64,000 bases of DNA from Dehalococcoidia bacterium (GTDB taxonomy: Bacteria; Chloroflexota; Dehalococcoidia; Plut-88900), in the NCBI GenBank assembly GCA_965207225.1, contig CBDBLV010000005.1:1408001-1472000 (forward strand), read 5' to 3'. Of the stretch, positions 7,919 to 64,000 are shown in pieces (the first letter of the stretch is position 1; each line of letters begins with the position of its first letter). The notes below the pieces were generated by a model, which saw nothing but the letters and a program-made list of their open reading frames with translations, was not told the DNA's origin and ran no database searches. Position numbers and translations under genes: made by a program.

Positions 7919-9712
7919 TTGTTAAAGACAATAGGGTGTGGTGAACTCAGGGCAGCGGATACAGGCAAGGATGTTACGCTGGCTGGATGGGTGCACCGTC
8001 GGAGGGACCACGGGGGGCTGATATTTATCGACCTTAGGGATAGGTCGGGGGTGGTGCAGGTGGTGCTGAACCCGAAGGAGTCCCCAGAAGCCCACGAAAC
8101 AGGGACACAGTTTCGCAACGAATGGGTGGTGCAGGTGGAAGGTAGGGTCGGGGCGAGGCCCGCGGGCACGGAGAATCCGGACTTGGCGACGGGAGAGATA
8201 GAAGTGGGGGCACGTGTGGTGAAGGTACTGAATCAGTCACGAACGCCGCCGTTCTACGTGAATGAGGAAATAGAGGTTGAAGAAGGGCTCAGGCTCAAGC
8301 ACCGCTACGTTGACCTAAGGCGTCAGAGACTCCAGCGAAACATCGCCCTGCGTCACCGTGCTGTGAAGTACATCCGGGACTTCCTGGATGCTGAGGGTTT
8401 CCTCGAGATCGAGACACCGGTGCTGATAAAGAGCACGCCGGAAGGGGCCCGGGACTACCTGGTGCCGAGCCGTGTGCACCCGGGGAGCTTTTATGCCCTG
8501 CCGCAATCGCCGCAACAGTTGAAGCAGCTGCTCATGGTGTCGGGGTTCGAGCGGTATTTCCAGATAGCGCGGTGCTTCCGGGACGAGGACCAGCGAGCAG
8601 ACCGACAGCCGGAGTTCACCCAGCTGGACCTGGAGATGAGCTTCGTGGACGACGAAGACGTGCTGGACCTGACGGAGGCGTTGTTCACGGGTCTGGTGGA
8701 GTCGGTTACACCGGATTTCGATTTGACCAAACCTTTCCCTCGACTGAACTACGACGAAGTGATGAGGAGGTTCGGTACGGATAAGCCGGACCTTCGATTC
8801 GGGTTGGAATTGGAAGAGATCACGGATGTGGTGAAGGAGTCGGGGTTCAAGGTGTTTCGGTCAGTTGCGGAGAGCGGGGGAATGATAAAGGGGATGCGGG
8901 CGACGGGGTGCTCAGGATACAGCCGGAGGCAGGTGGACGAGTTGACGGAGTTTGCCAAGGAGAGGGGTGCGAAGGGCTTGGTGACGATAGCCTTGCAAGG
9001 GACACCGGACTCGGGGGGATGGTGGGGTGTTGAACAGGTAAGGTCGGCGGTTACGCGCTTTCTGAGCGAGGATGAACTGAATGGAATAATTGGTCGTCTT
9101 GGAGGGGAAACGGGAGACCTGCTTCTGATAGTGGCGGGGGATGAGAAAACGACGAATGCGGCGCTGGCGGCGTTGAGGAACGAGATGGGGCGGAGGCTCG
9201 GGCTGGCTGATCCGAAGAAACTGTCCTTCTTGTTCGTGGTGGACTTCCCGCTGGTGGAGTGGAACGAGGATGAGGGGAGATGGGACTCGACGCATCACCC
9301 GTTCACCTCGCCTCGGGAGCAAGATATCGGGTTGATGGACTCTGAGCCGGGTCGGGTGCGGGCGCGGTGCTACGATATGGTGTGCAACGGGCAGGAGCTG
9401 GCCAGCGGCAGCATACGGATACACGATAGAGAACTGCAGCAGAAGGTGTTCAAGCTGTTGGACTACGACGAAGAAGAGGCACAGTCGCGGTTCGGGCACC
9501 TGCTGGAGGCGTTCGAATACGGGGCACCGCCGCACGGGGGCATTGCCCCGGGTATCGACCGGCTGGTAGCGATCCTTGCCGGAGAAGAGAGCATCCGGGA
9601 GGTGATTGCCTTTCCCAAGAACCAGAGTGCAGTGGACGTAATGACGGATGCGCCCGCGCCCGTGAGCCCGAACCAACTGAGGGATCTGCACCTGAGGATT
9701 GTGCCAGAGTGA
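7919..9712 (+). CDS. aspS: Aspartate--tRNA ligase, probably non-discriminating Asp/Asn type
   Basis: [58 protein letters not shown]. Confidence 0.96.
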
Positions 9713-9750
9713 TGGGACTCGGGGGGAGGGGCGTTGTCGGGGGTGGGCTG

Positions 9751-9759
9751 TGCTATAAT
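9751..9759 (+). promoter_or_regulatory. Extended -10 promoter of tig-clpP-clpX
   Basis: TGcTATAAT about 50 nt upstream of tig. Confidence 0.55.
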
Positions 9760-9808
9760 TTTCACGAACGGAAGCTTAGCATTTCCGTCGCCAAGGGAGT
9801 TCTCCACC

Positions 9809-11152
9809 TTGAAAGTCACCAGCGAAAAACTACCCGAAAGCCGCGTTCTTCTCACCATCGAGGTGGAGGGCGACGAGCTTGAAGGTACGTTAAAGAAGAC
9901 GTACAAGAGCCTGGCGCAGCGGGTACGGGTGCCGGGATTCAGACCGGGGAAGGCCCCGAGGGCCATCATCCAGAACTTCGTAGGCAAGGAAGCGGTAATC
10001 AACGAGGCGCTGCAAGACCTGGCGCCTGAACTGGTCGAAAAGGCAATCGAGGAGCAGGACCTGGAGGTGATCGATACGCCCGACGTGGAGTTCGAGCCAC
10101 GGGAGCCGGCGGTAATCAAGGCTACGGTGCCCCTGAAGCCCACGGTGGAGCTGGGAGACTACAAGTCGATACGGGTAAAGCCGGACCCGGTAGAGATAAC
10201 TCCGGAGCAGGTGGAAGAGGCGATGGAGTCTGTGAGGCAGAGGAACGCACCGTGGGAGCAGGTGGAGAGGGCGGCAGAGTTCGGGGACCTGTTGACGATA
10301 GATGTGGATGGTCGGGTGGATGGGGAGTCGGTGATCAGTGAGTCGGGGTCTCCGTACCAGCCCAACCCGGATATGGACTTCCCTGTGCCCGGATTTTCGC
10401 AGCAGTTGGAGGGCATGGGCAAGGGAGAGTCCAAGGAGTTCGCCCTGATGCTTCCAGACGATTTCAGACAGGAAGAGATCGCCGGAAAAGAGTGTGAGTT
10501 CAAAGTCACGGTGCAGGAAGTCAAGGCCAAACTGCCGGGGACTGTGGACGAAGAGTTTGTAAAGGGGTTGGACGGGGACTACGAAGACCTGGCCGACTTC
10601 CGTGCGAAGACTGTCGAGGCGCTGGAGGAGCAGGCCAAACAGCTGTCGGACCGCAAGTTCGAGGAAGAGCTGATGCAGGCTCTCAAGGAGAAGGCTAGCA
10701 TCGAGGCGCCCCCCAATCTGACGGAGCGGGAGATCGACCACATGATAGTGGACGAGGCACGGGCCATCGCGCAGGCCGGGCTCGAGTTTGGGAACTATCT
10801 CCGGGCCATCGGTCAGACGCCGGAAGGGCTCAGGGATGCGAGACGGGAGTCGGCGGAGAGCCGGGTCACGACGTCGCTCATTCTCAACAAGCTGGCGGAG
10901 GAGGAGGAGATTGAGGCGAGTGAAGAGGAGATAGAAGAAGAAATCAGAGAGGCCGAGGCCCAGGCCGATGCGGCAGACCCGGAGATGTTGGAACGGCTGC
11001 ACAGCGATGAAGTTAGGGGCAACCTCGGGAATCGGATCAGGCTGAGAAAAGCCGTTGAACGCATGAAAGAGATCGCCCAGCAGGGCCCGGCGCTTGCGGT
11101 GTCGGGGGCCGGGGCAGTGAATGAAAACGAGGAGAAAGATGCGACCGGATAA
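9809..11152 (+). CDS. tig: Trigger factor
   Basis: [10 protein letters not shown] ribosome-binding motif, FKBP-like middle domain; TTG start at 9809 after RBS AAGGGAG; upstream of clpP. Confidence 0.94.
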
Positions 11153-11768
11153 CGTGATACCGATGATAATCGAGAGCGGCGCCCGGGGGGACAGGGCGTT
11201 CGACATCTATTCGCTGCTGTTGAAAGAGCGGATCGTATTCCTGGGCACACCGATCACGGACCACGTGGCCAATCTGATCGTAGCTCAGCTCCTTTACCTG
11301 GAGCGGGAAGACCCGGACAAGGACATCAACCTGTACATCAACTCGCCTGGTGGCGTGATCAGCGCCGGGCTGGCGATTTACGACACGATGAGGCTGGTAC
11401 AATGCGACGTGTCCACGATATGCGTCGGGATGACTGCGAGCATGGGCACGGTGCTGCTGAGCGGGGGCAAGGCCGGCAAAAGGTTCGCATTGCCCAACTC
11501 CACGATACACATGCACCAGCCGATGGGCGGAGCACAAGGACAGGCGTCCGACATCGAGATTGCGGCGAAAGAGATACTGAGGCTTCAGGACAAGCTGAGG
11601 AATATCCTGGCGGACAACACGGGCCAGGACTACGAGAAGATAGCCAGGGACACGGATCGGGACATCTACCTTAGCGCGGACGAAGCTAGAGACTACGGAT
11701 TGGTTGACAAAGTGGTGGGCTCGGTGGAAGAAGCGAAGGAAGAGGCTAAAGAGGAGAGCGCCGAGTGA
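11139..11768 (+). CDS. clpP: ATP-dependent Clp protease proteolytic subunit
   Basis: [35 protein letters not shown]; ATG 11139 after GAGGAG. Confidence 0.96.
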
Positions 11769-11798
11769 TATGGGCCGCGGGGCCCGGGCTGAGACTGA

Positions 11799-13124
11799 AT
11801 GCCCGACGAAAGAGACGGAAAACCGAGCTACGCCTGCTCCTTCTGTTCCAAGAGTCCTCCTGACGTAAAGAAGCTGATTGGGGGGCAGGCCGAGACTTAC
11901 ATCTGCGACAACTGCGTGGCGCTATGCCAGCAGCTGATAGACGAAGATCGCAGTTCGGCGGGCAAGGATCTGGGGCCGGAGCAGATGCTGACTCCCCGGG
12001 AGCTCTACGACAAGCTGAGCGAATACGTCATCGGTCAGTCCCGGGCCAAGAAAGTCCTGAGCGTAGCGGTATACAACCACTACAAGAGGATAAGCAACAG
12101 GGGGTCGGGTGGGGAGGTGGAGCTGGACAAGACCAACATCCTGCTGGTGGGGCCCACTGGATGCGGCAAGACCCTGTTGGCCCAGACCCTTGCCAAGATC
12201 CTGCAGGTGCCCTTCGCTATCGCCGATGCGACGACCCTCACAGAGGCAGGGTATGTTGGCGAAGACGTCGAGAATATCCTGCTGAGGATAATACAGGCGG
12301 CGGACTATGACGTCGGGCGGGCGCAGCGGGGCATTATTTATATCGACGAGATAGACAAGATATCCCGGAAGAGCGAGAACCCTTCGATCACGAGGGATGT
12401 GTCGGGAGAGGGGGTGCAGCAGGCGCTGCTGAAGGTGATAGAGGGGTGCATTGCCAATGTGCCGCCACAGGGAGGCCGAAAGCACCCGCACCAGGAATAT
12501 ATCCAGCTTGACACGTCAAACATTCTGTTTATCTGCGGTGGTGCGTTCGATGGGCTGGAGGAGCTTATAGAGCAGCGGGTGAAGAGAGACGTGATAAACA
12601 TGGGGTTTACCTCGGCGGTGCGAGGGCAAAGAGGGTCAGAAGAGTTGCTCAACCAGCTGGAGCCCGAGGACCTGCTGAAGTTCGGACTGATACCCGAGCT
12701 CATTGGTCGGCTGCCGGTGATGGCGGCAGTGGGAGCTTTGGACAAGAAATCGCTAATTTCTGTGCTGACGCAACCAAAGAACGCGCTTGTGAAACAATAC
12801 GAGCGGATATTCGAGCTGGACGGGGTGGAGCTGGAGTTCACGAAGGCGGCCCTGGGACGGGCGGCGGATATGGCGATAAGGCTAAAGACCGGGGCCAGGG
12901 GCTTGAGGTCCATATTAGAAGAGGCGCTCATGGAGGCGATGTACCATGCGCCTTCGATCCCAGACGTGGTGAAGTGTTATGTGGATGAACAAGCGATGGC
13001 AGGAAAGAGGTCGGCTACGCTGATAACGTCGGATGGCAGGGTGCTTGAAGCGAGGGCGGACTTGGATGACATGGGTTCGGGGCTGAGGCTGGACACGGGG
13101 CTCGAGGAAGAGAAGACTGCCTGA
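11799..13124 (+). CDS. clpX: ATP-dependent Clp protease ATP-binding subunit ClpX
   Basis: CSFC/CDNC zinc finger, [43 protein letters not shown]. Confidence 0.97.
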
Positions 13125-58010: not shown

Positions 58011-59052
58011 TCAATCTAGGTTTTTCTGGCTATGGGCCGCTTCCCCTAGGCAACGGCTTTCCGCTCCCAGCTCCCTACCCAAGAACAGCATGGCTTGCCG
58101 TCCGCGTGGCTTGGTGCGCCGTCTGCCTGGCTTCTTCTTCCGCTTGAATCCTGGTAGTCCTTTGGCCGTCTGGCCTTTGGTACTCTCCCGATTGCCTCCA
58201 ACTTGTGGGCCACCTCCTCCCAGTTGTGGAATGGGGGGGTTGGCCTTTGCCACACTAGCGGGGGTGGCCTTCCCCATTACCTATAGGTGAGGCCCGAGAA
58301 AGTTGTAGTTTAGCACCCACCCGTCAACGTACTGTTGGGCAGACTCCAGCCGCTTGAACCCCCTGAACACCTTGTCCCGTTCCTTGACGGTCCCGTTCAG
58401 CCGCTCGATAAGGCTGTTATTCACGACGGCGGCCAGTGCCTCCGTCTGCATGTGATCTACCTAGCCGTCAAACACGGCTTTGATTGCGGTGGGGCAGGAT
58501 TTCATCTTGTAGGTGCATATGAACTCAGGGAGATTGGCGGCAGTGTTCTTCGCCATTGGCATCACCCTAACGATTTGTCGGACATCCCGCCTGTGCGTCA
58601 GCAGGGCCGCAAGGATGTATAGGGAATCATCGTCCATGACAAGCCACAGCCAATTGTACTCCCTGTCTATCGTCACGTCCGTCTCTTTTGCCGACCATAC
58701 GGGGCCGGCCTGGGCCTTCACATCTTTGACTGCCCTTACTGCCTCGTCTGCGTAAGCTTGCACCCACTGGTAGATCGTGTTTTCGCTTGGCGCGGCTATT
58801 TCAAGGGTGTTCTTCAACTGCCTAGCGGTTTCGCAATAAGAAAGCCCTTCGAAATATGACTGAAGCGCCGTGCCGATTTGCTTGATGGAAAACTGCTTAC
58901 TTTTGGTGATGCCCGGGGCGCGAAACTTAGTCCGGCATTTCTTGCACTGGGTAGCGTTGATGCTTGCCCTACATCCCGACCTTGATGACCTTCCCTCCGT
59001 CCTTATTGGGGCATCCGATTGTGTAGGTTATGTTCTCGGAAATCTCAGTCAT
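58011..59052 (-). mobile_element. Degenerate IS6-like DDE transposase pseudogene with an N-terminal zinc ribbon
   Basis: Fragments GCPNK..VIKVG*..QRY/QCKKC; WSAKETDV (catalytic D lost); TYKMKSC; NNSLIERLNGTVKERDKVFRGFK..YNFLGPH..TPA; several stops and frameshifts. Confidence 0.78.
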
Positions 59053-60258: not shown

Positions 60259-60525
60259 TTAGTCCACCACGCGATAGACACCACGCCGGACACGTTCTAA
60301 GTGACCTCTAGTTGCCATACGCGACACAGCCGCTCTTACCGCGTGCCGGTAATTAGGCCTGCTGCCCCATATGCCCGCTACTGCCCATTCTCGTACCAAC
60401 AAGTCTTCGTGTTCCTCCAGCCATGCGTACACCTCTGCTAGAGAGGCTTGGCCTTCATAAGCGTATAGGGCCTTAACTATTCGCAAGGTCCAGAAATCGT
60501 GTGGCCTTCTAAAGCGCACCATCAT
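60259..60525 (-). CDS. Small winged-helix protein (Mrr N-terminal/HARE-HTH-like)
   Basis: IVKAL..GQASLAEVYAWL..VRAAVSRM..GHLERVRRGVYRV. Confidence 0.6.
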   Translation of the reverse strand: MMVRFRRPHDFWTLRIVKALYAYEGQASLAEVYAWLEEHEDLLVREWAVAGIWGSRPNYRHAVRAAVSRMATRGHLERVRRGVYRVVD

Positions 60526-60604: not shown

Positions 60605-60835
60605 TCAATGTTTGGAGTCGTCCTCCCGCAATGCTCCACTTTGGGAAAGGCGACTCTCCAGCACAATTAGAAAATCTAGCGTTTCTTGCAGATGGGTTAA
60701 GATCAAATCGTGGAAGCCCTCATTCTTTGACCATCTCCGTTGCTCGATTTGCAATTGCTTCAGATTGTCTTGTAATGATTGAAGACGAGCCCCTAGGTCG
60801 TCTGTGTCACCATTAGACGCGGGCGCCTTAGCCAT
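60605..60835 (-). CDS. Small hypothetical coiled-coil protein
   Basis: 76 aa, ATG after AAGGCGG, directly downstream of the structured leader. Confidence 0.4.
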   Translation of the reverse strand: MAKAPASNGDTDDLGARLQSLQDNLKQLQIEQRRWSKNEGFHDLILTHLQETLDFLIVLESRLSQSGALREDDSKH

Positions 60836-60871
60836 ATCAATCCGCCTTGCTTATCACTGATTCTCTAGTCA

Positions 60872-60911
60872 AACAACCTCCCTTGCCCGAGACTTGGACA
60901 GGGAGGTTGTT
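60872..60911 (-). terminator. Terminator-like hairpin in the leader of the 60835 gene
   Basis: Perfect 12-bp arms AACAACCTCCCT (60872-60883) / AGGGAGGTTGTT (60900-60911). Confidence 0.6.
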
Positions 60912-61039
60912 GTCGATTGCGCTATGCTCAAGTCTTGGATAAACCCCAAGAGCTTGGCCAGCCCGATGCCTGCCTGTTTCAAGTGTCGGCGTGCCGCTCG
61001 ACGTCTCAAACGTCGAGTGACACTTTTTCGTTGGATGAT

Positions 61040-61068
61040 ATATTAAGATAGCCTATTGGTTATGACAA
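61040..61068 (-). promoter_or_regulatory. Sigma-70 promoter reading leftward
   Basis: Minus strand TTGTCA-N17-TAATAT. Confidence 0.55.
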
Positions 61069-61368
61069 GCGCGTAATTGGGCCTCGTACAGTATAAAACC
61101 TTATGGGAAGAGCCCTGTTGTATTGCGGCTCCTCTCCCCTAAGGCCCCTAGGGGGTCAAACCCTACTTCCAAAAGAACGATTTTATCCAGACTGGTGGGC
61201 CGCCGCGTACTGCACTGCCAACTCTTCGGTGGGAGGTTTCTATCTGGGTGACACCATCACGATCAGCGAAACAATCTGACTGGTTCGAATACGGCCGGAG
61301 GGCACGTTGGAAATCCGTGCGAGAGTCGTCTCGTAACATAAACAGCCGGTTTGTCCACCTAACTGGGG

Positions 61369-61410
61369 CTGACGGAACTTACTAACGAACCTAGGATGTT
61401 TACTGAACAT
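61369..61410 (+). promoter_or_regulatory. Probable viperin promoter with an overlapping palindrome
   Basis: CTGACG(61369-61374)-N17-TAGGAT(61392-61397); ATGTT-N5-AACAT at 61396-61410. Confidence 0.4.
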
Positions 61411-61442
61411 TTCTGCGGAGATTTAGAACATCGAGAGGTTGT

Positions 61443-62321
61443 ATGAACATTTCCACGCAAGTCCCTTCAGTCAATTTCCACCTGTGGAAGCCCTGCAACA
61501 TGAAATGCAGATTCTGCTTCGCTACCTTTCAAGATGTCGGACACCAGGTCCTACCTGAAGGACACCTTTCCCGTGAGGATTCCCTCGCGGTCGTGGAGAC
61601 TCTTGCTAAGGCCGGCTTCAGCAAAATCAATTTCGCCGGTGGGGAACCCATCCTTTGCCCATGGCTTCCTGATTTGATACGGCGAGCCCGAGAATTGGGG
61701 CTCACCACCTCCATGGTCACTAACGGCAGTTTCGTCACACCTGAATGGCTGGATCGTGTAGATGGCTGTCTGGATTGGGCGGCGGTAAGCATAGACACGG
61801 TGGACCCGGAAAAGTTGATACGCATTGGGAGAAGCACGCGGACCGGTCCAATGAGCGAGGCCGACTACCTGCGGGTCATGGATATGCTCAGACAGCGCGG
61901 CATACGGCTGAAGGTCAACACTGTGGTGACGAGGATCAACTACAATGAGAAGTTGGCTGGATTTATAGTCAAAGCGGGGCCGGAACGCTGGAAACTACTT
62001 CAAGTGCTGCCTGTCGGGGGCCAGAATGATGGATCGGTGGACAACATGTTGATAACCAGCGAAGAATTCGCCCGCTATGTAGCACGAAATCGATACGTGG
62101 AGTCCAGGGGCATTGTGGTGGTGCCGGAAAGCAATGACCTGATGACCGGCAGCTACGTGATGGTCGACCCGGCTGGACGCTTCTTCGACAATGTTGCCGG
62201 CACCCACGTCTACAGCCGCCCTATGAACCAGGTCGGCGTTCATGCTGCGCTGAGGGAGGTATTGATCGACACAGACAAGTTCGGGTTGCGGGGTGGTCTG
62301 TATGAGTGGCAACGAGCCTGA
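61443..62321 (+). CDS. pVip: Prokaryotic viperin (antiviral radical SAM enzyme)
   Basis: SVNFHLWKPCNMKCRFCFATF (CxxxCxxC), KINFAGGEP, VTNGS, KVNTVV, PERWKLLQVL, ESNDLMTGSYVMVDPAGRF, C-terminal RGGLYEW. Confidence 0.92.
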   Translation: MNISTQVPSVNFHLWKPCNMKCRFCFATFQDVGHQVLPEGHLSREDSLAVVETLAKAGFSKINFAGGEPILCPWLPDLIRRARELGLTTSMVTNGSFVTPEWLDRVDGCLDWAAVSIDTVDPEKLIRIGRSTRTGPMSEADYLRVMDMLRQRGIRLKVNTVVTRINYNEKLAGFIVKAGPERWKLLQVLPVGGQNDGSVDNMLITSEEFARYVARNRYVESRGIVVVPESNDLMTGSYVMVDPAGRFFDNVAGTHVYSRPMNQVGVHAALREVLIDTDKFGLRGGLYEWQRA

Positions 62322-64000
62322 AGCCGACATAACTGAACGCGAGGTCACACCCCGGCTTCCCACTAGCGGCCAGATACTGGGAGCAGTGGTCAAAAAACTG
62401 GGCATCAAACATGTCGAACTCCAGAGTAGAACAGCCCGCCGATTTTTCTCAGCCGATCCGGAATACCTCGTTAAGGACTCTTCCAGAGAAAAGATCATAG
62501 CAACGATCGCTGAAGTGCTAACTCGCTCCGGGCTGGTTGCATCGCCGCGGGAAGGCGCGGATGACTACAGGCAATCTGCGTTGGCCTCCATGCTCCGCTG
62601 GCATGCCGACCACTGGGACCTGCTGCGATCTTTCGTTCGTCGCAGGACAATGAGAGTCCTGCCCGGAAACTTGCCCAAGGTCTGGGAGGCATACGTCAGG
62701 CTCGCCATTATCGACCTTGCCCTTAGGGTAGCCGCCCACCTGCATCTCGCCGGCTCGTCCCCGGCAGCGCTGGATTTCCTCGCCTCGTCGAGCCACACAG
62801 GCCGAGGAGAATATCTCAACCAAAAGCGTCAGCAGACTTCCCTCTCTCTGGAGGAGTTTGCAGAGGCTGTGGGGGTAACAGACAACACCGTCGATGCCTG
62901 GATGTATCACGGGGCTCGGCCGTCCAGTGATAACCTTGCGAAGATAGCCGAGACGCTGGCTGACGAAATTGCAGATTCAAATTCAGCGGAAATTGCCCTT
63001 GAACTGCGGGCCCTGTACTGGGTCAGTGACGTCGTCGATCTGTTGTCCGAGCACATAGGAGACCGGGCTGCCGGCGAGGTCATCGGGCAATTGCGCCGGT
63101 ACGCTGAAGCAACCTATCGTGCAATCGAAGATCAGTTTCCAACCGAAAACCGGTCTGAAGACCTCATGGTGCTGGCGGACTTGGGAGTTGGCGCCCGCCT
63201 TGCGAAACCCCTGCTGTCTTCATTAATCCAACAGGAACAGGATGACGGTTGGCGGGAGGACCTTCGGGCCACCGGCATGGACTGGGTCCGCCGCGTCCTT
63301 TCGGTGAATCTGGGCGTTCACCTTGCCGAGGTGGATGACCTCATCCGGAAGACGGATGGGCGTCTTCTTGGGGACTGGGATGTTAGCAACCCCGAGGCTT
63401 ATGCCCATTACCGGCGTTCCCTGGAATTGCGGATGCAGGGGAGACTCCCCGAGGCCCTGGCCGAGGTCGAGATTGCTGCCCGGCTGGACCCTCTGGATCC
63501 GGCGAACCACTGTACGCTGGGGTCAGTGAAGACGGACATCGGCATTGCGAGTGAGGATACGGCCCTCATCAAAGAGGGCCTGAATGCGTTGTGGCTGGCG
63601 GTGACCCTTGACCCCAGCTGGAGCCTCCCATGGACCGAAATAGGCATAGTGTTGCACCATACCGGCAGGTCGGCGGAAGCGGTGGAGCACTTGCGAAACG
63701 TAAGTCCGGGATGCGGACGCCTGGATTCGAAATACCACAGCGCGTTGGGGGCTGCGTGCTGGAAGCTGGGTGAGCTGCCTGAAGCCCTGGCAGCTTTCGA
63801 GGTGTCACTCGAACTGGACCCTGAGGAGACCTCCGCTTTGCTAGCGGCATCAGAGCTCGCCTTGTTGATTGGCGACGACGAAAAGCACAGGCGGTATCTC
63901 AAAAAGGCCAGGCATTTCGGAGCAGACGAAGACACCCTCAGAGTTTGGGAACTGCTGCGGCGGTTCGGAGGGAAGGGTCAGGACAAGGCTGAAACGGCCG
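62302..64000 (+). CDS. XRE-HTH plus TPR-repeat protein, 3'-truncated by the window edge (absent from the ORF track)
   Basis: Hand translation is open from ATG 62302 to 64000 (at least 566 codons); HTH GEYLNQKRQQTSLSLEEFAEAVGVTDNTVDAWMYHGARPSSDNLAKIAETL; TPR-like GRLPEALAEVEIAARLDP, GRSAEAVEHL, GELPEALAAFEVSLELDP. Confidence 0.85.
   Translation, partial: MSGNEPEADITEREVTPRLPTSGQILGAVVKKLGIKHVELQSRTARRFFSADPEYLVKDSSREKIIATIAEVLTRSGLVASPREGADDYRQSALASMLRWHADHWDLLRSFVRRRTMRVLPGNLPKVWEAYVRLAIIDLALRVAAHLHLAGSSPAALDFLASSSHTGRGEYLNQKRQQTSLSLEEFAEAVGVTDNTVDAWMYHGARPSSDNLAKIAETLADEIADSNSAEIALELRALYWVSDVVDLLSEHIGDRAAGEVIGQLRRYAEATYRAIEDQFPTENRSEDLMVLADLGVGARLAKPLLSSLIQQEQDDGWREDLRATGMDWVRRVLSVNLGVHLAEVDDLIRKTDGRLLGDWDVSNPEAYAHYRRSLELRMQGRLPEALAEVEIAARLDPLDPANHCTLGSVKTDIGIASEDTALIKEGLNALWLAVTLDPSWSLPWTEIGIVLHHTGRSAEAVEHLRNVSPGCGRLDSKYHSALGAACWKLGELPEALAAFEVSLELDPEETSALLAASELALLIGDDEKHRRYLKKARHFGADEDTLRVWELLRRFGGKGQDKAETA

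Follow-up and report, generated by a model that had tools for sequence, protein, structure and literature searches.

A prokaryotic viperin and a putative HTH-TPR regulator form a mobile gene pair with a conserved promoter site in Chloroflexota

The 64,000-nucleotide (nt) stretch of DNA analyzed here (the window) covers positions 1,408,001 to 1,472,000 of contig CBDBLV010000005.1 in the genome assembly of a Dehalococcoidia bacterium (GCA_965207225.1). Near its 3' end lie the gene for a prokaryotic viperin (pVip), a radical S-adenosylmethionine (SAM) enzyme, and, overlapping it, the gene for a protein that combines an XRE-type helix-turn-helix (HTH) domain with tetratricopeptide repeats (TPRs) and that we call the partner. 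A short conserved site precedes the pair. The features are collected in Table 1. A first-pass annotation, made from the letters of the window alone, had proposed that the two genes are an antiviral module in which a TPR sensor or regulator controls viperin.

Table 1. Features of the viperin/HTH-TPR cassette in the window and of the small open reading frames (ORFs) of sister cassettes (L, locus; aa, amino acids; AF2, AlphaFold2; pLDDT, predicted local distance difference test)
Feature	Position	Strand	Basis
Conserved 22-nt site TTGTCCACCTAACTGGGGCTGA, putative operator	61351..61372	+	Conserved before first gene of loci
-35-like hexamer CTGACG	61369..61374	+	CTGACn in 15/19 aligned sites
-10-like hexamer TAGGAT	61392..61397	+	nAnnnT 17 nt past CTGACn in 19/19 aligned sites
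Prokaryotic viperin (pVip), 292 aa, radical-SAM enzyme	61443..62321	+	NF038283, PADLOC pVip, invariant cysteines
HTH-TPR partner gene	62302..64000 (first 566 of 861 codons in window)	+	ORF open to window end
Partner N-domain, aa 1-160	62302..62781	+	All-helical; AF2 pLDDT 82.3 folded alone
XRE/Cro-CI-type HTH domain, aa 161-250	62782..63051	+	Pfam HTH_3, VIA-align
Helical linker, aa 251-365	63052..63396	+	AF2: helices 254-350, block pLDDT 77-96
First TPR block, aa 366 to ~560	63397..64000	+	Pfam TPR families
Small ORF of sister cassettes	L021:7737-7904; L022:7720-7890; L023:7702-7851; L034:1250-1375; corresponding stretches in L035-L037

As judged from its sequence, the product of the upstream gene is a full-length member of the pVip family. 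It scores 298.5 bits against NCBIfam NF038283 (viperin_w_prok), which is above the curated cut-off of 180, and it also matches the PADLOC pVip model (1.5e-86), the viperin part of the kinase-fusion model (7.9e-112), and Pfam Radical_SAM (1.2e-21). The NF038283 family is that of viperin-type antiviral radical-SAM proteins. The CxxxCxxC cluster motif of radical-SAM enzymes is present as CNMKCRFC at residues 18 to 25, and C18, C22, and C25 are invariant in an alignment of 15 sequences (A4).

The viperin TGA (62319-62321) lies inside the partner ORF, for which GTG 62293 and ATG 62302 are candidate starts. ATG 62302 is the start that aligns with homologues, and it gives the 20-nt overlap described in the first-pass annotation; a GGGGTGG stretch is found a few bases 5' of it. 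The reading frame is open to base 63999 of the window and, when the contig is extended, is completed at 861 aa (L004:6302-8887), with the gene end 887 nt past the window end. The other landmarks that had been read from the letters are also in place. An N-terminus of ~165 aa without a known family had been proposed, and residues 1 to 160 indeed have no Pfam or PHROG match. Pfam HTH_3 matches residues 174 to 219 (window 62821-62958; 27.4 bits, cut-off 23), within a few codons of the HTH placed at ~62806-62958. TPR-like repeats had been suggested at ~63390-63900, and Pfam TPR families match from residue 376 on; at 167.2 bits for TPR_2 and 161.8 bits for TPR_1 over the full-length protein, the partner qualifies as a TPR protein. 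It contains ~13 TPRs in all, ~5 of them degenerate, starting at ~residue 366, followed by 8 canonical 34-aa repeats at residues 586 to 857, all of which lie beyond the window end.

Structure prediction for the TPR-free part of the partner is consistent with these assignments. The AF2 model of residues 1 to 370, made with a 19-row alignment, is all-helical (pLDDT 84.3; predicted template modeling score, 0.80). When residues 161 to 250 were compared with known structures by VIA-align, 14 chains scored Z ≥ 8, and all those listed are XRE-type domains, including HigA (3trb; Z 9.6), C.EcoT38IS (Z 9.2), the CapH N-domain (7t5u; Z 8.9, root mean square deviation 1.6 over 65 residues), P22 c2 (Z 8.8), C.AhdI (Z 8.4), and SinR (Z 8.1). 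ComR, PrgX, and PlcR gave Z 7.4, 7.0, and 6.6, respectively. Foldseek with the model of residues 1 to 370 returned nothing at E ≤ 0.001 and only local matches to XRE domains, a profile of the same residues matched PDB sequences in the HTH only, and an ESM Atlas search gave scores of ≤0.86, to XRE-type or unnamed clusters only. Based on the model, we conclude that residues 161 to 250 have the canonical five-helix XRE/Cro-CI fold. In the recognition helix, T196 and W200 are nearly invariant or invariant across the partner family (alignment A1, 19 sequences), which matches the invariance of the DNA site described below.

The remaining parts of the protein are less easily placed. The N-domain, modeled alone, has no Foldseek match at E ≤ 0.001. 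Its best VIA-align rows are XRE-type regulators at Z 5.9 (residues 17 to 107) and 5.4 (residues 17 to 116), scores too low to stand out from noise with helical models, and hhalign gives a probability of 1% for its similarity to the HTH of the partner; that it might be a second HTH is a guess. Neither Foldseek nor VIA-align finds a fold match for the helical linker. Searches of the 861 residues against Pfam, NCBIfam, PADLOC, and PHROGs found no enzymatic or toxic domain, and the PADLOC capH match (E 0.0045) covers the HTH only. Residues 1 to 370, with the TPRs excluded, match 273 clusters at 90% identity. The best 120 of the 273 share 62 to 100% identity with it over the first 370 residues; their lengths group around 860, 560, or 500 aa, and their names are uninformative. 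Among clusters at 50% identity, the A1 profile matches 1,698 with an E-value cut-off of 0.001, of which 479 remain at 1e-10 and 179 at 1e-30, most of them 550 to 620 aa long. The first TPR block is common to short (~560 aa; range, 532 to 640 aa) and long (~860 aa) relatives, and the long form adds the 8 canonical TPRs. No partner relative was found in viral contigs.

The partner family can be traced through 24 distinct readable loci: the two copies in the genome of the window, 9 of 11 species-representative loci, 7 from a class sample of 401 genomes, 1 from a metagenome, and 5 from a phylum sample of 401 genomes. The 2 unreadable species-representative loci are on contigs that begin 14 nt before the partner gene. 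In the metagenome scan only L025 is new; L007 and L008 recur there as the identical L024 and L026, and L014 recurs in a variant form, L027. All 24 loci are from Chloroflexota, and all 11 species-representative loci are from Chloroflexota, Dehalococcoidia, or SAR202 metagenome-assembled genomes (MAGs). A co-oriented gene lies directly upstream of the partner in every one of the 24 loci. In 17 this gene is viperin, so that homologues of the HTH-TPR gene cannot be said to neighbor viperins rarely; in the other 7, an unrelated ORF of 49 to 56 aa stands in viperin's place. The viperin match is split over two frames in L010 and L014, but for L014 there is a near-identical record of the locus in which a single frame covers it.

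The reverse count was made in the class sample, where 7 of the 401 genomes together encode 9 viperins that exceed the curated cut-off; 6 of the 9 have the partner. The 3 without it (L028 to L030) are a solitary viperin in the genome of the window (on contig C4), one beside a HigB/HigA-like pair, and one beside a gene for a 1,715-aa helicase. The partner family itself is patchy: by a single-protein query, it has members in 7 of the 401 class-sample genomes and in only 1 of 7 other genomes of the genus to which the window belongs. The cassette is found in several families of Chloroflexota. The solitary viperin on C4 (G000:C4:57071-57895, minus strand, corresponding to L028:7056-7961) is the third viperin of its genome and is 53% identical to the window viperin; it has neither an HTH-TPR gene nor the conserved site.

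Several observations indicate that viperin and partner travel together. Their spacing is tight elsewhere as well, with an 11-nt overlap in L017 to L020 and a gap of 2 to 12 nt in L013 and L016, and by this measure the coupling is kept across loci. The genome of the window carries a second copy of the cassette on the same contig (C5:853939-856496), 615 kb from the first. In a blastn comparison of 18-kb stretches around the two copies, there is one shared block (L004:5339-8919 versus L005:7836-11414; 88.6% over 3,582 columns), which extends from 12 nt before the conserved site, 104 nt before the viperin ATG, to 32 nt past the partner stop. Contamination of the MAG (8.33%) does not account for the two copies, since a single 2.08-Mb contig holds both. 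Between the paralogues, codon differences (synonymous versus nonsynonymous) number 47 versus 27 in viperin and 29/27, 12/8, 15/16, 28/21, and 47/48 in successive parts of the partner. In every part, synonymous differences are at least about as frequent as nonsynonymous ones, which indicates that both copies are maintained.

The same picture is obtained from other genomes. L006 and L009, which come from two different genomes, have only the module in common (91.8% identity over 8975-12543), here with homology that includes ~70 nt 5' of the site. Within one genus, the module occupies a syntenic locus in some genomes and is missing from it elsewhere. In one MAG, two contigs each open 14 nt ahead of the partner gene, the only sequence common to them (88.8%), a pattern that would be expected if the assembly had broken within a repeated viperin; one of these two contig-edge loci is nearly identical to L025, which has viperin. 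Viperin/partner identities are 91/86% for L005, 81/67% for L011, 70/66% for L006, and ~58/26-36% for L017 to L020. No repeats were seen by eye at the cassette borders. Because the unit is duplicated in one genome and recurs in others, the pairing is not a matter of chance, and the comparison of loci indicates that viperin and partner are a discrete unit whose genes move together, in agreement with the two-gene module that had been proposed at the outset.

The history of the partner can be followed further in a maximum-likelihood tree of 24 N-terminal regions (L037, in which the gene is split, was left out, and the midpoint root is for drawing only). Six proteins linked to the small ORF are split off by a branch with 98/98 support, on the other side of which are 16 viperin-linked and 2 contig-edge proteins. 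Given this clean split, one exchange of cargo is enough to explain the two kinds of cassette. The tree does not agree with taxonomy: the protein from G577, which belongs to another family of the phylum, nests among close relatives. One genome, G005, holds one cassette of each kind. Together, these two observations point to horizontal transfer.

The ORFs upstream of the sister HTH-TPR genes encode hydrophilic proteins of 49 to 56 aa with the core NQ[ML]NPNN..YW.SRG[YF]..RP.DW. They belong to no Pfam or PHROG family, and no hydrophobic leader is present in their sequence. At 90% identity the family comprises 591 clusters, none of which has a name other than "hypothetical". Neither the viperin-type loci nor the genome of the window contains a member.

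The 22-nt site in front of the window pair has the core TTGTCC-N4-AACTGGGG and overlaps the -35-like hexamer at its 3' end. In viperin-type loci, TTGTCC-N4-AACTGGGGCTGA is found 80 to 95 nt 5' of the viperin ATG. At ≤3 mismatches, the site precedes the first gene in 16/17 viperin-type loci and in 5/7 small-ORF-type loci (L022 and L034 to L037), where it lies ~110 nt before the small ORF with 1 to 3 mismatches. In an anchored alignment of 19 non-identical sites, conservation is confined to tTTGTCCa...AACTgGGGCTGAC and the nAnnnT hexamer, with exactly 17 nt between CTGACn and nAnnnT; neither the upstream flank nor the sequence of the spacer is conserved. The site is kept although the identity of the partner N-terminal region falls to 25 to 36% and that of viperin to 58%. 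We read CTGACn-N17-nAnnnT as a putative sigma-70-type promoter of moderate quality. Rfam gives no match at E ≤ 1 over 60800-62400.

Outside the cassettes, the site is rare. In the 4.03-Mb genome of the window it occurs, at ≤2 mismatches, at the two modules only. The class sample has 11 matches at ≤1 mismatch, in 9 genomes, compared with 2 for a reversed control. Seven of the 11 are at modules, and 3 are one-mismatch strays that have neither viperin nor partner nor small ORF in their vicinity; a GTPase-like reading frame contains one of these 3. The last is an exact orphan in G131 (L041:5001-5022, minus strand; G131:C1:1901807-1901828), at a syntenic position flanked on one side by a small conserved gene and on the other by the gene for a P-type ATPase. 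This is where the viperin module lies in four genomes of the same genus, and G131 has two unrelated ORFs in the place of the cassette. No exact copy of the site was found in viral contigs, and the site is absent upstream of the three partner-less viperins. Its presence before an unrelated small ORF, taken together with its absence at these viperins, indicates that the site goes with the HTH-TPR gene and not with viperin. This gives indirect support to the part of the first-pass annotation that has the HTH-TPR protein control viperin expression, as the promoter site travels with the HTH-TPR gene even where there is no viperin.

The cassette is best explained as a self-contained, horizontally mobile, antiviral unit, and the partner is probably its own transcription regulator, which would bind the conserved promoter site and use its TPR array as the input domain; we put the probability of this at roughly 0.6. 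Under this proposal, the XRE-type HTH, possibly helped by the N-domain, would bind TTGTCC-N4-AACTGGGG upstream of and touching the -35 hexamer and so set the transcription of viperin and of the partner itself. The two halves of the site, TTGTCC and AACTGG, are about one helical turn apart, which would fit two DNA-reading units on one face, either two subunits or two domains of one chain. The TPR array would bind a protein or peptide signal, most plausibly one made during phage infection, and the signal would change DNA binding or contact with RNA polymerase. Viperin would then make 3'-deoxy-3',4'-didehydro-nucleotides, which would terminate phage transcripts. A phage protein is the most economical guess for the signal of an antiviral cassette.

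The direction of control is suggested by geometry. The center of the site is ~44 nt 5' of the predicted transcription start, and neither promoter hexamer fits the consensus. Class II activators bind in this arrangement, as lambda cI does at PRM, and by this analogy we lean slightly toward an activator. In other respects, a repressor that occludes the -35 hexamer would fit equally well.

A number of observations weigh against a regulator that binds this site. The counts are not independent, since all loci are in one phylum and many are related. L032 keeps the core only (TTGTCC-N4-GACTGGGG), and L021 and L023, 2 of the 7 small-ORF loci, have only degenerate versions of the site. The promoter was assigned by conservation, and a simple consensus promoter scan does not list it (8/12 matches, with 9 needed). 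Unlike most operators of XRE dimers, the site is not palindromic; only CCAG-N4-CTGG is symmetric, and imperfectly so in the window. The site could also be conserved for a host factor, as a promoter-proximal sequence inherited with the cassette. Finally, no domain evolves faster than the others between the paralogues, the TPRs included, and so the TPRs bear no sign of an arms race.

Of the other explanations, the one that survives best places the action of the partner at the protein level. The TPRs would bind viperin, its substrate, or its reductant supplier and gate or localize the enzyme, the HTH would tether the complex to DNA or be vestigial, and translational coupling would set the stoichiometry. 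The conserved overlap of 11 to 20 nt is in keeping with this, as is the textbook role of TPRs as protein-protein interaction modules, and viperin and partner diverge in step (91/86% to ~58/26-36%). However, sister proteins of the same architecture, with the same upstream site, are paired with the unrelated 49- to 56-aa ORF, which argues that the conserved job of the family is not tied to viperin. Moreover, three viperins of the same class do without the partner, and the HTH recognition helix is conserved with no decay. We consider a partner of this kind unlikely. Co-folding of viperin with a full-length partner (the G165 pair, with alignments A4 and A5) gave a score of 0.00 twice, which carries no weight either way.

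It is also rather improbable that the site is something other than the operator of the partner, such as a promoter element, a host-factor site, or a recombination site at the 5' edge of the cassette, with the partner acting elsewhere, for instance on phage DNA or on other genes. The asymmetry of the site would agree with such a role, and so would two features of its surroundings, namely, that homology between the two copies begins 12 nt before it and that G131 keeps it, alone and exact, at the junction where the module is missing. Against an edge element, the homology between L006 and L009 continues ~70 nt upstream, so that the site is not at the edge there, and the fixed 17-nt spacing to the -10-like hexamer in 19/19 sites ties it to a promoter. 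Against a host factor, its absence from the rest of the genome of the window means that it is no global factor's motif, and with cassettes in several families of the phylum, all would need the same factor. A last possibility is that the partner regulates nothing and is itself a phage sensor and effector working alongside viperin, whether as a second effector or as a component of abortive infection. This suits the variable, defense-like surroundings of the locus and the established use of TPR sensors in other immune proteins but is very improbable for a protein of 861 residues in which Pfam, NCBIfam, PADLOC, and PHROGs show no enzymatic or toxic domain and whose sole non-repeat domain of known fold is a DNA-binding HTH.

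Beyond transcription control of viperin by the partner, there is a more far-reaching idea, which we offer tentatively and hold to be possible at best: that Chloroflexota have, in the HTH-TPR protein and the TTGTCC-N4-AACTGGGG site, a new and portable switch that senses infection and can be placed before different cargo. If so, the bacterial viperin would be an induced gene, a one-protein counterpart of the interferon-induced viperin, and the TPR array would be a direct receptor for a phage protein. The 49- to 56-aa "NQMNPNN..YW.SRG" protein that stands in for viperin in the sister cassettes would then act either as an antiviral effector of a new, small kind or, in the manner of SinI, as an antagonist of the regulator.

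Comparison with described viperins sets the cassette apart. In the parts of the literature available to us, pVips appear as single genes or beside kinases or HicA/RelE toxins. Nucleotide kinases neighbor 12% of bacterial viperins in the text seen of the preprint of Shomar et al. (2023), HicA/RelE-type toxins are the neighbors named in that of the Gerdes preprint, and the accessible portion of a preprint on modularity mentions viperins only as relatives of another radical-SAM protein. The window pVip resembles the described ones in being full-length and in lying in variable, defense-like surroundings; it differs in having a dedicated HTH-TPR gene and site. The first-pass annotation knew of no account of this pairing, and a full-text search of the literature likewise found no description of it in the texts that could be seen. 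Viperin L029 has an arrangement closer to the published ones: at L029:3978-4685 (G398:C70), a HigB/RelE-like gene paired with a HigA-like one begins 139 nt 3' of it on the same strand, which agrees with the published RelE-viperin association.

Among known regulators, the RRNPP proteins (PlcR, NprR, PrgX, Rgg/ComR, and AimR), to which the HTH-plus-TPR layout had been likened, resemble the partner in that one polypeptide combines an XRE-type HTH with a TPR sensor and controls, or in the case of the partner would control, a promoter close by. The comparison holds as a loose analogy and fails as an assignment to the family. In RRNPP proteins the HTH is N-terminal with the TPRs directly after it, whereas the HTH of the partner is internal, after a 160-aa domain and before a 115-aa helical linker that leads to the TPRs. 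RRNPP proteins have ~280 to 390 aa and members of the partner family 560 to 860 aa; the window partner is two to three times larger than an RRNPP protein. RRNPP genes adjoin a gene for a secreted propeptide; no conserved small gene follows the partner, and the homology between its two copies ends 32 nt past the stop. In addition, the partner is found in Chloroflexota, and its HTH matches RRNPP proteins no better than any XRE protein. On layout, size, and lack of a propeptide gene, we reject membership, although the partner may nevertheless work like an RRNPP regulator.

Regulators dedicated to defense systems are a second point of comparison. Like C proteins, CapH, and BrxR/CapW, the last of which are regulators dedicated to defense systems, the partner is a cassette-borne, putatively DNA-binding regulator with a site at its own promoter, from a family shared by cassettes of different cargo, and its HTH resembles those of C.EcoT38IS, C.AhdI, and CapH. 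It differs in its putative input domain, which is a TPR array in place of a WYL domain or partner protease, in its much larger size, and in being the distal, translationally coupled gene. No CapP-like protease is present among the 18 neighboring ORFs that were scanned. The partner is thus not of the CapH/CapP or C-protein type, which are short HTH proteins (~70 to 110 aa) and share only the HTH fold with it. On present sequence criteria, it belongs to the XRE-HTH and TPR superfamilies only. There is also a likeness, if the partner does regulate viperin, to the interferon-induced viperin (RSAD2) of animals, since viperin would in both cases be under signal-dependent transcription control and not constitutive. 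One case involves a cytokine cascade and the other a single cis-encoded regulator, and the likeness is an analogy only.

Prokaryotic viperins have been studied mostly as single genes under foreign promoters, and their regulation in native hosts still calls for an explanation. The cassette offers a directly testable viperin with what would be its own sensor-regulator, reduced to a 22-nt site, one putative DNA-binding protein, and one enzyme. If a phage product is what the TPR array recognizes, the array would represent an infection sensor of a new kind, one that acts through transcription. The combination of a shared switch with exchangeable cargo also flags the widespread, unannotated small-protein family as a candidate immune or regulatory component.

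The gene content around both copies of the cassette indicates contexts that are variable and defense-like. The window copy has an IS240-type transposase fragment and an 88-aa AbiEi-like winged-helix ORF on its 5' side and genes for a serpin and an HNH nuclease on its 3' side, and the second copy is followed by genes for a PLD-like (DrmC-like) protein, a BrxD-like ATPase, and a HerA-like ATPase. The transposase fragment (58281-58817, minus strand) consists of two adjoining ORFs that seem to be pieces of one IS240-type DDE transposase gene, and a 118-aa piece matches Pfam DDE_Tnp_IS240 at 1.1e-06. In the 88-aa ORF (60259-60525, minus strand), the C-terminus corresponds to the AbiEi antitoxin winged helix (2.3e-05 in Pfam and 2.3e-05 for PADLOC AbiEi), and no AbiEii-like gene was noticed beside it.

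Directly 3' of the second cassette, L005:12798-17264 (G000:C5, ~858.8-863.3 kb) holds four co-oriented genes, for the PLD-like (DrmC-like) protein, the BrxD-like AAA ATPase, the HerA-like ATPase, and a 415-aa ORF without a family, and these may be another defense system. The gene for a 1,715-aa helicase-nuclease-like protein is common to two genomes of the genus of the window (L023:10735-15882 and L030:1465-6612), with a small-ORF/HTH-TPR cassette upstream in L023 and a solitary viperin downstream in L030; this locus may be a hotspot for defense islands. About 3.7 kb past the window end, on the minus strand, is a 482-aa serpin gene (L004:11687-13135; Pfam Serpin, 2.3e-109), a kind of gene that is uncommon in bacteria.

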